From Candidatus Saccharimonadota bacterium (GTDB lineage: Bacteria; Patescibacteriota; Saccharimonadia; Saccharimonadales; UBA4665), in assembly GCA_016700375.1 (NCBI GenBank), contig CP065016.1, positions 1,224,495 to 1,256,494 on the forward strand: a stretch of 32,000 bases of DNA. Reading direction: 5' to 3'. The notes beneath the pieces are model-generated. The model did not search any database. It saw only the letters and a list, made by a program, of their open reading frames with translations, and was not told where the DNA came from. A program made the translations under genes and the position numbers. This document shows, piece after piece, positions 16,780 to 19,441 of the stretch; position 1 is the stretch's first letter; every line of letters begins with the position of its first letter.

Positions 16780-17505
16780 ATGGCAAGCTTCTTCGACACC
16801 ACCATCGGTCAGCAGGTCGAGTTCCAGCGCGTGCTGGCCTCGGCAGGTTTCACCGACAGCGACATTGCCCGCATCATCAAGGAGCCGAATCTGGCCTCCA
16901 CGATGTACGTGGCGATCCAGCCCAAGGCCGTCGCGACTGTGCCGTCCTGGTACGTCTCGCCCGAGCGTCAGCTCGAATGTGCCCGTCAGCTCTGGCCGAA
17001 CGCCGTTCTGCCCGAGCCGCCCAAGGAGTTCACGCCCCGGACGAAGTCCGAGGTACTGCTTCTCCACGTGCCGGACACGTTCGATAACCTGTGGAACCTG
17101 GTCAACGCCCCTGAGGGCTACACCAAGTACCGCTGGGAGGGCGTCAAGTCAGACAAGCGGAATCTGCGTCTCGCGCCCAACAAGGTCGAGTACACGGAGC
17201 CCGTCTGGCTGGCCTTCGACCCCGAACGTGGCAAGGGTGAGCGTCCCGACTCCTTCTGGGGTCAGGCCGACACCGCTGCCAGCGAGGTCTTCTCGGCGCT
17301 GATCCAGTTCCCTGAGTGGTCACTCGCGTGGTTCAATGGTGCTTCGGCTCCGAACCTCACGGGCTACCAGCTCAAATACGACGGGAACTGGTCGAACGTT
17401 CCGTACCTCGGCCGGTGGGACGTCGACCGCCAGCTGGGGCTGCGCGACCGCTGGGCTGACAGCCGGAGTGACAGCTGGTCGTCTCCGTCGGTCAGGGAGT
17501 GCTGA
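16780..17505 (+). CDS. DGR variable (target) protein, 241 aa, no obvious signal peptide
   Basis: GC-rich ORF whose last 39 codons form the VR. The RBS is AAAGGAAG. The other ORFs overlapping this span are GC-composition artefacts. Confidence 0.85.
   Translation: MASFFDTTIGQQVEFQRVLASAGFTDSDIARIIKEPNLASTMYVAIQPKAVATVPSWYVSPERQLECARQLWPNAVLPEPPKEFTPRTKSEVLLLHVPDTFDNLWNLVNAPEGYTKYRWEGVKSDKRNLRLAPNKVEYTEPVWLAFDPERGKGERPDSFWGQADTAASEVFSALIQFPEWSLAWFNGASAPNLTGYQLKYDGNWSNVPYLGRWDVDRQLGLRDRWADSRSDSWSSPSVREC
17387..17503 (+). repeat. DGR variable region (VR)
   Basis: 117 nt aligning without gaps to 17882-17998 (offset 495). There are 13 differences, and 12 of them lie opposite TR adenines. The 3' 24 nt CTGGTCGTCTCCGTCGGTCAGGGA are invariant (IMH-like). 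Confidence 0.9.
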
Positions 17506-17509
17506 TACT

Positions 17510-17589
17510 GGAACCTTGGTTCCTTGGTATCCGGAGGGGTCTTGTATTCTTGGACTTTGGTCCTTGAAAACTTTACCTCTCCGGATACC
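17510..17589 (+). other. stem-loops immediately downstream of VR
   Basis: GGAACC-TT-GGTTCC (17510-17523). GGTATCCGGAG (17526-17536) pairs with CTCCGGATACC (17579-17589), extendable to about 14 bp with one G-T. Confidence 0.4.
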
Positions 17590-17623
17590 TGCACTCACTT
17601 TTTGAATTTGTCTCTTATCTGTT

Positions 17624-17656
17624 CCTCTGCTTTAGCAGAGGCGCTTTTAATTTTTT
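17624..17656 (+). terminator. rho-independent terminator after the target gene
   Basis: CCTCTGC-TTTA-GCAGAGG followed by CGCTTTTAATTTTTT. Confidence 0.6.
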
Positions 17657-17881
17657 GCTAAAATAGGAAATGAATTGGTTACTGAACGTATGTTCATGGA
17701 TGTACGTCACCGATTCCGTGTTTTGAAACTGACAGAATTATCTTATTTACGGATGAGGTAAGTGCGCAGGCAAAATATCGAGCACTCCGTGCAATCCGCT
17801 AGAGATATGTATCTCGTATAAAATACAGAGTTTGGATGCGTCTGGACTCAGTGGCACCGGACGGTGGATTGCGCTATACCG

Positions 17882-17998
17882 ACTGGTCGAACGTTCCGTA
17901 CCTCAACCGGTGGGACGACGACCGCCAGCTGAAGCTGAACGACAACTGGGCTGACAACCGGAATGACAACTGGTCGTCTCCGTCGGTCAGGGACTGCT
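17882..17998 (+). repeat. DGR template region (TR)
   Basis: Read in the VR register it gives AAC, GAC, AAG, AAC, AAC, AAC, AAT, AAC at the 8 codons that differ in VR (G, V, G, R, R, S, S, S). Confidence 0.9.
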
Positions 17999-18409
17999 CG
18001 TGATAGATTTTAGCCAGCCTCCCAGCATGCGTCCAATCTCGTTGCAGGTTGAGTCAAGCTGCTGGTAGGTCTGGTTAGAAACGCATTTACAGTCTTTGCA
18101 CAGATTGAGGAGCAGGCGGAGGCTATCGAGCCGTACGGATGCTTCTTTGATATAAGCGGCCTTATCGGATGGTTTAGTGCTACCAGCAGCTCGCAGTGAC
18201 AGTCGCAGGAGCTCAAGTATTTCGCTCTGACACGTCGCGCCGAGACCGTAGCGCTCTGATTTTGGAAATGCAATTAAACAATCATGAAAGGATTCATATA
18301 GGTGATAGACGCTGTTGACAATGGGAACTTTCCGCAGCGCGGAACCTCTCTCTCTCTCTCTCTCTCTCTCTCTCTCTCTCTCTCTCTCTCTCTCGATAGC
18401 CACGCTCAA
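17987..18409 (-). CDS. avd: Avd-like accessory variability determinant (four-helix-bundle family)
   Basis: FPKSERYGLGATCQSEILELLRLSLRA and EIGRMLGGWLKS match the Avd / 23S rRNA-intervening-sequence protein pattern. The start is uncertain: the only canonical in-frame starts are TTG 18409 and GTG 18403, beyond the (CT)n tract. Confidence 0.8.
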   Translation of the reverse strand: MSVAIERERERERERERERERGSALRKVPIVNSVYHLYESFHDCLIAFPKSERYGLGATCQSEILELLRLSLRAAGSTKPSDKAAYIKEASVRLDSLRLLLNLCKDCKCVSNQTYQQLDSTCNEIGRMLGGWLKSITSSP

Positions 18410-19441
18410 ACCAACCCTCTCAAAGTAATAATTACAGACATTGTATCTATTAAAGCATTGTCAGCCGCATGGCGGAAGTTCTCGCGAGGTAAAAAATCGA
18501 GGAAAGATGTCGCCTTATACCAAAAGTATCTTCAAAAAAATCTCGCTGACATACATGCACCGCTTTCATCTGGTCTCTACAAGCATAAATCCTACCAACG
18601 ATTCACCATACATGACCCAAAACAACGCCAGATACATAAAGCAACGGTAGCCGATAGAATTGTACATCAGGCAGTCGTTACGGCCATTGAACCACTCTTC
18701 GAGAGGCGATTTATATACGATAGCTACTCTTGTCGCGTCAATAAAGGTGCTCATGCTGGCGTGTCGCGCCTGAAAACTTTTCTTGCCGGTACAAGCAAAA
18801 ATGACACAAAAGGAGTATATGCGCTCAAGTGCGATGTACGAAAATACTTTGCTTCGATTGACCACGAGATATTACTGGGCCTTATTGCTCACCATATTCA
18901 AGATGATGCAACTTTGGAGCTGATACGAACGATTATTCTGAGCCATGGTGCTGAAACCGGTAAAGGCATTCCGCTCGGCAATATTAGCAGCCAGTTGTTT
19001 GCGAACATATATCTCCATGAATTGGATTGGTTTATGAAACAAAGCCTTGGAGTTAAGCAATATATTCGCTACTGTGATGACTTTGTGATCGTCTCATCGG
19101 ACAGAGCATACCTCGAAAGCCTCATTACACCCATTCGTAATTTTCTAAAAACCGAACTTCAACTTGATTTGCATCCATCAAAAGTGTCGATTCGATCATG
19201 GAGACAGGGCATAGATTTTCTTGGCTACGTCTTACTGCCACACGCCACCGTGGTCCGCACAAAAACACAAAAGAGAGTACATTCAAAAGTTAATGCCGAC
19301 AATTACTTGTCTTACCTTGGGGTATGTTCTCATGCAAATGCCTATAGGCTCTCGCAAACTATCCGTAACGTAGTTTGGGCCGACGACTCACAGCAAGCGC
19401 AAAATCACGCGACCAAGAAAGCTATAGGTGATTTATCATAG
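18302..19441 (+). CDS. DGR-type reverse transcriptase
   Basis: AAWRKFSRGKK N-terminal motif, GIPLGNISSQLFANIYL (DGR [I/L]GxxxSQ hallmark), IRYCDDFVIV (YxDD). The start is uncertain: GTG 18302 (AAAGGA 9 nt upstream) reads through the CT tract, and the next in-frame canonical start, TTG 18458, would truncate the conserved N-terminus. Confidence 0.9.
   Translation: MIDAVDNGNFPQRGTSLSLSLSLSLSLSLSLDSHAQTNPLKVIITDIVSIKALSAAWRKFSRGKKSRKDVALYQKYLQKNLADIHAPLSSGLYKHKSYQRFTIHDPKQRQIHKATVADRIVHQAVVTAIEPLFERRFIYDSYSCRVNKGAHAGVSRLKTFLAGTSKNDTKGVYALKCDVRKYFASIDHEILLGLIAHHIQDDATLELIRTIILSHGAETGKGIPLGNISSQLFANIYLHELDWFMKQSLGVKQYIRYCDDFVIVSSDRAYLESLITPIRNFLKTELQLDLHPSKVSIRSWRQGIDFLGYVLLPHATVVRTKTQKRVHSKVNADNYLSYLGVCSHANAYRLSQTIRNVVWADDSQQAQNHATKKAIGDLS
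18346..18394. repeat. perfect (CT)24C dinucleotide microsatellite
   Basis: Read directly from the sequence. It translates as (SL)8 in the RT ORF and (ER)8 in the avd ORF. Confidence 0.95.

Follow-up and report, generated by a model that had tools for sequence, protein, structure and literature searches.

The question raised by this locus is whether the two near-identical repeats and the open reading frames (ORFs) between positions 16,780 and 19,441 of a 32,000-nucleotide stretch of a Candidatus Saccharimonadota bacterium (contig CP065016.1 of assembly GCA_016700375.1, positions 1,224,495 to 1,256,494; hereafter the window) make up a complete diversity-generating retroelement (DGR), and, if so, whether this element is still at work. 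Every defining DGR component which can be checked in silico is intact here: the target gene with its variable repeat (VR), the hairpins, the template repeat (TR), the accessory gene avd and the gene for a reverse transcriptase (RT). [quoted passage not shown]

The evidence that carries this reading comes from the repeat pair itself. Direct comparison of the TR (17882-17998) with the VR (17387-17503) gives a gapless alignment over 117 nt at an offset of 495 nt, with 13 mismatches, 12 of which place a TR adenine opposite G, C or T in the VR, and in all of this the initial annotation, made from the letters alone, proved to be exact. The 12 adenine mismatches are all at codon positions 1 or 2 and are spread over eight codons, whose TR forms (AAC five times; AAT, AAG and GAC once each) agree with the counts made previously. 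Adenine accounts for 27 of the 117 nt of the TR, and the hypergeometric probability of at least 12 of the 13 mismatches falling on it is 2.6e-8; an equal frequency of non-adenine differences, raised at the outset as grounds for doubting a DGR, was not observed. The VR ends 2 nt short of the end of the target ORF, inside the stop codon, and neither a second copy of the TR nor a second VR served by it was found within the 32 kb window. Seven TR codons are of the AAY type, and altogether 17 VR codons stand opposite TR adenines (7 AAY, 1 AAG, 7 GAC, 1 TAC and 1 CAG; 25 adenine positions), from which approximately 6e14 protein variants are possible, with a stop codon reachable from AAG only.

The same signature extends over the whole protein family. 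In an alignment of 116 full-length homologues of the target, column entropy amounts to 1.0-3.4 bits wherever, within residues 203-232, the first or second letter of the TR codon is A, the remaining VR positions stay below 0.75 bits except for R229 (1.08), and the mean for the scaffold is 0.38. Family-wide variability of the VR is therefore restricted to those TR codons that bear adenine. Two of the related loci compared with the window (designated by L and a number), L006 and L011, have nearly the same TR as the window, together with VRs carrying 14 and 16 adenine mismatches and an identical single C/G mismatch (14/15 and 16/17).

That single non-adenine mismatch (G at 17499 in the VR, C at 17994 in the TR) comes directly after 24 identical GC-rich nucleotides (17475-17498), which had been noted as resembling an initiation of mutagenic homing (IMH) sequence. 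In the related TRs compared (L006/L016, L011 and L024) the TR ends GGGACTGCTCG, and every VR ends GGGAGTGCTGA; since the VR-G/TR-C difference recurs in these loci, it represents the distinction between the IMH and the IMH* of the TR, and not noise. The adenine-bearing codons within the IMH (AGG239 and GAG/GAC240) are invariant in the family and therefore mark the 3' boundary of homing. About a third of DGRs have a hairpin or inverted repeat close behind the VR, and efficient homing in BPP-1 and in Legionella needs it. In the window, the hairpin cluster following the VR reaches -26.6 kcal/mol when folded as DNA (z = -9.4, with 0 of 200 shuffles equally good) and is conserved, with a small number of compensatory changes, across 13 related loci; no comparable hairpins follow the TR.

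The enzymatic components are likewise present. The Avd-like protein mentioned in the initial annotation is real, matching Pfam bAvd with 61.9 bits (cut-off 40; E 9.5e-17) and PHROG 3206, 'Avd protein of DGR' (E 8.5e-23), and reaching 71.3 bits against NCBIfam DivGenRetAVD, just below the equivalog cut-off of 80. Its gene was found to be on the minus strand, a point absent from that annotation, with the stop codon and the last codons running antisense over the final 12 nt of the TR. In the RT the RVT_1 domain is complete (E 2e-20, profile positions 8-204 of 205), and the previously recognised DGR-specific motif LGNISSQ, of the type [I/L/V]GxxxSQ, is read in the ORF; the RT contains GIPLGNISSQLFANIYL and GIPLGNISSQLF. 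It also matches PHROG 1423 (E 2e-103) from residue 41 onwards, upstream of TTG 18458. As many as 3005 RT homologues were found at E <= 1e-60, forming a huge clade in which the named members are RTs of Saccharimonadales. The libraries searched included no DGR-specific RT model, and in NCBIfam the best RT matches were to group II intron and Drt models, all of them far below the cut-offs.

The latter matches, being the best that NCBIfam offers, speak for a different reading, in which the repeat pair is an ordinary segmental duplication of the 3' end of the gene with random divergence and the RT is one of a different class, such as a group II intron, retron or defence RT. This reading is effectively refuted by the adenine bias, by the exactness with which variability in the family tracks adenine codons, by the presence of Avd, by an RT motif of the SQ type instead of the group II intron motif, and by the absence of any Rfam family, including intron RNA, between 16400 and 19700, and we regard its probability as practically negligible. 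The coordinates of the DGR and of the features around it are collected below.

Table. Features of the DGR cassette and its immediate surroundings (positions in the window; strand as + or -, a dot where neither applies)
Feature	Position	Strand	Remarks
Direct repeat, left copy	16508-16565	+	Final ~57 nt of the gene for the coupling protein
Putative promoter of the target gene	16589-16617	+	TTGCTT, 17 nt, TATAAT; read from the sequence
Hairpin in the target 5' untranslated region (UTR)	16652-16700	+	23-nt arms; inverted repeat 83% complementary
DGR target gene	16780-17505	+	ORF of 241 aa with the VR at its very 3' end
Mutagenised part of the VR	17387-17474	+	17 codons opposite TR adenines, residues 203-232
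IMH	17475-17503	+	24-nt GC-rich invariant block and G 17499, which separates the IMH from the IMH* of the TR
Hairpin cluster directly after the VR	17497-17596	+	GGAACC-TT-GGTTCC, then a hairpin with 30-nt arms at 17526-17589, closed by GAGTGC/GCACTC
Intrinsic terminator of the target gene	17624-17650	+	Placed at 17624-17641 by the terminator scan; the 'target gene unit' of decayed loci ends here on the right
TR	17882-17998	+	IMH* at 17970-17998; near-identical in L006 and L011
avd (accessory variability determinant)	17987-18409	-	Pfam bAvd, PHROG 3206
DGR RT gene	18302-19441	+	379 aa if started at GTG 18302 and read across the tract; 327 aa if started at TTG 18458
(CT)24/(GA)24 dinucleotide tract	18346-18393	.	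Belongs to the 5' ends of both divergent frames (avd and RT)
Direct repeat, right copy	19402-19460	+	Makes up the C-terminal tail of the RT ORF; the two copies enclose the entire target-TR-avd-RT cassette

The initial description of the locus as a complete, textbook DGR can thus be retained with regard to completeness; 'textbook' calls for two reservations: avd is inverted and overlaps the 3' end of the TR (architecture B3), and the 5' ends of avd and of the RT gene run through a hypervariable (CT)24 tract. By analogy with BPP-1, we infer that the TR would be transcribed from the plus strand and its RNA copied by an RT-Avd complex into cDNA, with misincorporation opposite template adenines. 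The cDNA would replace the VR at the 3' end of the target gene, and both the direction of transfer and its 3' boundary would be set by the IMH (G 17499 versus the IMH*) and by the hairpin cluster just downstream. In the predicted structure the variable residues lie on the C-terminal beta-hairpin region 203-232, which would most likely be a ligand-binding surface borne by a very divergent scaffold resembling a C-type lectin (CLec).

There are 352 close homologues of the target, drawn from many metagenomes, with an identity of at least 66% among the 120 matches listed, and clustering at 50% gives 280 representatives. The protein is without a hydrophobic N-terminus, signal peptide or transmembrane segment (the maximum Kyte-Doolittle mean over 19 residues is 0.79), as had been noted for the signal peptide, and would accordingly be made in the cytoplasm; its C-terminus reads WSSPSVREC and, as also noted, is not of the GFR type. 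No family matching the target was found in Pfam, NCBIfam, PHROGs or the PDB sequences, also when a 69-sequence profile was used or the 69 family members were tested singly, and none of these 69 matched the Pfam families FGE-sulfatase (PF03781) or DUF1566 at E <= 0.1.

Prediction of the structure, proposed initially as a check, resulted in an AlphaFold (AF2) model with a pLDDT of 95.5 and a pTM of 0.80 from an alignment of 69 sequences, which was used instead of one with 25 close homologues that gave a pLDDT of only 50. In this model an N-terminal helical module (approximately residues 1-55, with three helices at 9-46) and a further helix (61-71) precede a compact alpha/beta domain with invariant tryptophans (approximately 88-241), in which the VR takes the shape of a long beta-hairpin (203-213 and 218-225) followed by a loop and the terminal strand (237-240). 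Foldseek searches with the model returned nothing at E < 0.3 in either PDB or BFVD (best PDB match E 0.32), TvpA (E 0.66, TM 0.17) and FGE (48 columns, rmsd 3.5 Å) being among the weak and non-significant top matches. A divergent C-type-lectin fold is a plausible candidate. The suspicion that the variable-protein family is unusual therefore holds in so far as no family in Pfam, NCBIfam, PHROG or PDB and no fold in PDB or BFVD at E < 0.3 could be assigned to it; it does not hold in so far as this is normal for CPR DGR targets, which are usually unannotated ('UVR1-6' or ungrouped, PMC5758913; clade 2, PMC8144416).

With a dN/dS of 0.2-0.4, copies without an RT nearby included, the scaffold is under purifying selection. 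Orphan copies were also considered as possible pseudogenes, an idea rejected on the same values. At the N-terminus, members of the target family carry one or the other of two helical modules (MASFFDTTIGQQVEF... and MTTIEQLAGITSQHNEIV...), which are unrelated and interchangeable and are joined to the conserved domain at the same point near residue 55, as seen on comparing target residues 1-55 (16780-16944) with P0056-P0120, L003 and L024.

The target gene also differs from its surroundings in composition. The ORF has a GC content of 0.64 and a GC content at third codon positions (GC3) of 0.847, against a GC3 of about 0.45 (0.36-0.54) in the neighbouring genes, and its own UTR and downstream spacer are at 0.42-0.43 GC. 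This compositional island is found in the window target and in the homologues of L001-L012, L020 and L021, and is kept even in distant relatives (GC3 of 0.77 in L020 and 0.75 in L021, in loci at 50% and 41% GC). Depletion of adenine by DGR activity was considered as its source and rejected: A (0.176) and T (0.182) are equally depleted in the target and the UTRs are unaffected, so adenine mutagenesis is not the cause of the island.

The signals flanking the target gene delimit a conserved 'target gene unit'. Its left edge is the putative promoter at 16589, where the homology of a locus consisting of the lone gene (L022) begins; this promoter was missed by a consensus scan because its -35 element fits at only 3 of 6 positions. 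On the right, homology stops at 17649-17652 in L003, L010 and L022. The RNA of the target 5' UTR folds at -50.1 kcal/mol (z = -5.1), and its hairpin segment, which has no match in Rfam, is conserved in L001-L005, L008, L009 and L020 and may be a regulatory element. The possibility that the 16589-17650 unit is a retro-copied mRNA was dropped because the unit includes its own promoter.

The (CT)24 tract is the only dinucleotide repeat of at least 7 units in the window and reads as (ER)n in the avd frame and as (SL)n in the RT frame. In the window and in loci with approximately 82-95% nucleotide identity to it (L006 9403-9448, L011 1220-1243, L016 5317-5360 and L018 14-45), the tract has lengths of 24, 23, 22, 16 and 12 units. 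The only canonical avd starts, TTG 18409 and GTG 18403, are both upstream of it, and no canonical start lies between the tract and the conserved helix 1 of Avd. Canonical starts of both avd and the RT gene need a tract length that is a multiple of 3 nt; the upstream avd starts are in frame only where this is so, in the window and in L011, and avd is put out of frame in L006, L016 and L018. The tract of the window is in the frame that opens both genes. The N-termini of the RTs, clustered at 90% identity, fall into three roughly equal classes, MxDxxDNGNFPQRGTS(LS)n, MGTFRSAEP(LS)n and starts downstream of the tract. When viral contigs were scanned with the flank of the tract, 0 matches resulted.

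Two explanations of this tract have to be weighed, and its variation fits both of them, a slipped-strand contingency locus and an unconstrained non-coding spacer, equally well. As a mere slippage-prone spacer (a divergent promoter or 5' UTR), it would leave the DGR unaffected, with avd starting from CTG 18338, the RT starting from TTG 18458 and (GA)nGG serving as the ribosome-binding site of avd. Frame classes are about equal among close relatives, which is what an unconstrained length predicts, the 327-aa RT form starting downstream of the tract is recorded in NCBI (P0405), and (GA)nGG followed by 7 nt and CTG, as read from the sequence, would be good Shine-Dalgarno spacing. Such a spacer would, however, require two non-canonical starts at once; no canonical start separates the tract from helix 1 of Avd; L019 and L020, in which the tract is short, retain an upstream TTG or GTG in frame; and the RT is already homologous to other RTs from 12 residues upstream of TTG 18458, the first canonical start past the tract. 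On balance we hold this explanation to be evenly poised between right and wrong.

Alternatively, the (CT)n tract may be a phase switch turning the DGR on and off. In its full form, this proposal states that a slipped-strand (CT)n switch frames Avd and, in one further class, the RT, that DGR hypermutation is thereby phase-variable, that the target is a binding protein associated with the type IV secretion system (T4SS) described below, and that its GC3 reflects that role; taken together, we find these claims rather doubtful. If they were true, cells would stochastically switch diversification on, thereby sampling the VR space, and off again, thereby fixing a variant that proves useful; the target would be a cytoplasmically made, T4SS-associated binding protein by which an epibiont engages partner cells, and its lasting GC3-rich coding would be a constraint tied to this role. 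Gating of Avd and RT by the tract would be a simple mechanism for regulating DGR activity; no report of simple sequence repeat (SSR) control of a DGR turned up in the literature searched.

The genomic setting concerns both the host and a mobile element. A search with the target recovered ten genome loci. Nine of them belong to Candidatus Saccharibacteria / Saccharimonadia, and the tenth, in a Deinococcus genome, is a match of 32 residues (E 5e-4) that looks spurious. CPR bacteria are rich in DGRs, and studies of the epibiotic lifestyle have taken an interest in the type IV secretion genes of Saccharibacteria. Saccharibacteria are reported to carry about one DGR per genome (bioRxiv 10.1101/258137). 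In the window, the cassette is placed between a coupling-protein gene (13947-16565) and an FtsK-like gene, in the order coupling protein, DGR, 140-aa ORF, FtsK/SpoIIIE-like protein, Replic_Relax protein and large serine recombinase, and part of this order (coupling protein, DGR, 140-aa ORF/FtsK-like gene) recurs in L006/L016 and L011. The T4SS is represented by genes for a VirB2-like pilin, a VirB6/TrbL-like protein, PrgI, VirB4, a CHAP hydrolase and the coupling protein, and the domains found comprise T4SS_pilin/TrbC, TrbL, PrgI, TraG P-loop/AAA_10, CHAP, TrwB/TraG-D, FtsK_SpoIIIE, Replic_Relax and serine recombinase. Judged by this gene content, with a cell-wall hydrolase, a relaxase-like protein and an integrase in the same cluster as the T4SS genes, the window is an integrative conjugative element (ICE) with a monoderm-type T4SS. 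The target gene comes directly after the gene for the type IV coupling protein and its product may therefore act with the T4SS or leave the cell through it, which, speculatively, might take place in the interaction of the epibiont with other cells.

The direct repeats bracketing the cassette suggest an old insertion that kept the C-terminus of the coupling protein, from which the C-terminal tail of the RT (NHATKKAIGDLS) is derived; the right copy is longer and clearer in L018 (about 1054-1110). Elsewhere in the element, the VirB4-type ATPase is present as two overlapping ORFs, 10993-11652 (219 aa, N-terminal) and 11600-13402 (600 aa, P-loop), which may be due to a frameshift or to a truly split gene. 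The left end (209-8349) is occupied by a defence island that encodes an endonuclease of the GmrSD type, a T5orf172/MUG113 protein, a helicase (DEAD/ResIII) and a restriction-modification enzyme of the MmeI type in full length. At the other end, the serine recombinase and the region upstream of it (30223-32000) are 97.5% identical in nucleotide sequence to L001 11149-12926, which comes from another metagenome, and the same element is therefore in circulation among populations of Saccharibacteria.

Several observations weigh against the reading of the locus as a BPP-1-like DGR whose diversified product works with the T4SS. The target has no significant fold match to the known CLec variable proteins, TvpA included; the RNA downstream of the TR has no significant structure (z = -1.6); the start codons of avd and of the RT gene are uncertain owing to the (CT)24 tract; the connection between DGR and T4SS is drawn from gene order only, and the distant RT relatives L019-L021 are not adjacent to T4SS genes. 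Finally, the decay seen in L001, L003 and L022-L024 (TR truncated, RT or avd deleted) indicates a lineage that often loses its machinery. L001 (9644-12926) corresponds to the window element minus 17934-30222, deleted at a 3-nt GAA microhomology so that the TR is truncated, and also lacks everything to the left of 16424. In L003 (8555-10869) a gene for an IS200-type transposase follows after 17651, past the terminator; L022 (6810-7868) is a lone promoter-to-terminator unit (16589-17649) among housekeeping genes; L023 (6744-9027) has lost 18281-18597; and L024 (7172-8393) ends within avd.

This decay bears directly on whether the DGR could be structurally complete but silent, its VR/TR differences having been written in the past and the cassette now decaying or being mostly switched off. 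About half or more of the related loci are decayed or orphan (L001, L003, L005, L007, L009, L010, L012, L022, L023 and L024), tract length leaves avd out of frame in three others, as described above, and, since the N-terminal classes of the RT account for about one third each, selection to keep the frame open is not evident. In the window, by contrast, avd, RT, TR, IMH and hairpins are all intact and the tract frame opens both genes, and close relatives all have VRs that differ from one another at adenine sites, which requires repeated recent activity somewhere in the lineage. We therefore consider a silent element unlikely and infer that the DGR of the window is probably working at present.

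What the window offers is a clean, intact reference cassette accompanied by at least 350 natural variants of the VR in one family, a structure model of high confidence for an unclassified family of CPR variable proteins, and a fixed genomic link between a DGR and a conjugation/T4SS module in Saccharibacteria. Whatever could go beyond an ordinary DGR, namely the possible phase switch, the linkage to the T4SS/ICE and the GC3 island, should be taken as leads and not as results.

Comparison with known systems places these features in context. SSR contingency loci include the (TA)n of the divergent hifA/hifB promoter in Haemophilus influenzae and intragenic repeats in Neisseria and Helicobacter. 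The tract described here resembles them in being a long dinucleotide repeat at the 5' ends of, or between, divergent genes, and in its frame-shifting length variation in near-identical loci; it differs from them in that the genes controlled would be enzymes of targeted hypermutation and not a surface antigen. The target, for its part, shares with the CLec proteins of DGRs (Mtd, TvpA, AvpA and TaqVP) a C-terminal VR placed on beta-strands with invariant aromatic residues, and its predicted order of beta1, alpha1, insert, alpha2, beta2-4 and terminal strand is compatible with a CLec core plus inserts; it is set apart from them by the lack of a significant structural or sequence match and by its C-terminal ending.

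With the DGR of BPP-1 (mtd-avd-TR-brt), the locus has in common the adenine-specific transfer from TR to VR, a GC-rich IMH with a non-identical IMH*, TR codons rich in AAY, an inverted repeat just downstream of the VR, and an Avd together with an RT bearing the I/LGxxxSQ motif. It departs from BPP-1 in that avd is inverted and downstream of the TR, in that the element is chromosomal or ICE-borne and not phage-borne, and in that the target is no tail fibre. In BPP-1 a spacer RNA primes cDNA synthesis; its counterpart here would be antisense avd, in which no equivalent structure was detected.

Closer counterparts are found among cellular DGRs. Architecture B3, TR-(avd)-RT, was described by Wu et al. 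2018 (PMC5758913), and the present locus agrees with it in gene order and orientation (target, then TR, then avd on the opposite strand, then RT), with the differences that the stop codon of avd overlaps the end of the TR and that the 5' regions of avd and the RT gene overlap or abut through a dinucleotide repeat. The papers on CPR DGRs that were compared ('DGR clade 2', Roux et al. 2021, PMC8144416; 'CPR set', Wu et al. 2018, PMC5758913) make no mention of a T4SS/ICE placement, of (CT)n at the 5' ends of avd and RT or of a GC3-rich target such as those found here. In all other respects the likeness is close: the DGRs of these sets are cellular and have a single target, which is short, carries the VR at its C-terminus and is without a signal peptide, transmembrane segment or recognisable domain, and the RT of the window clusters with thousands of CPR RTs. 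There is thus no fundamental difference, and the DGR described here belongs to a very large class of CPR elements that has already been described.

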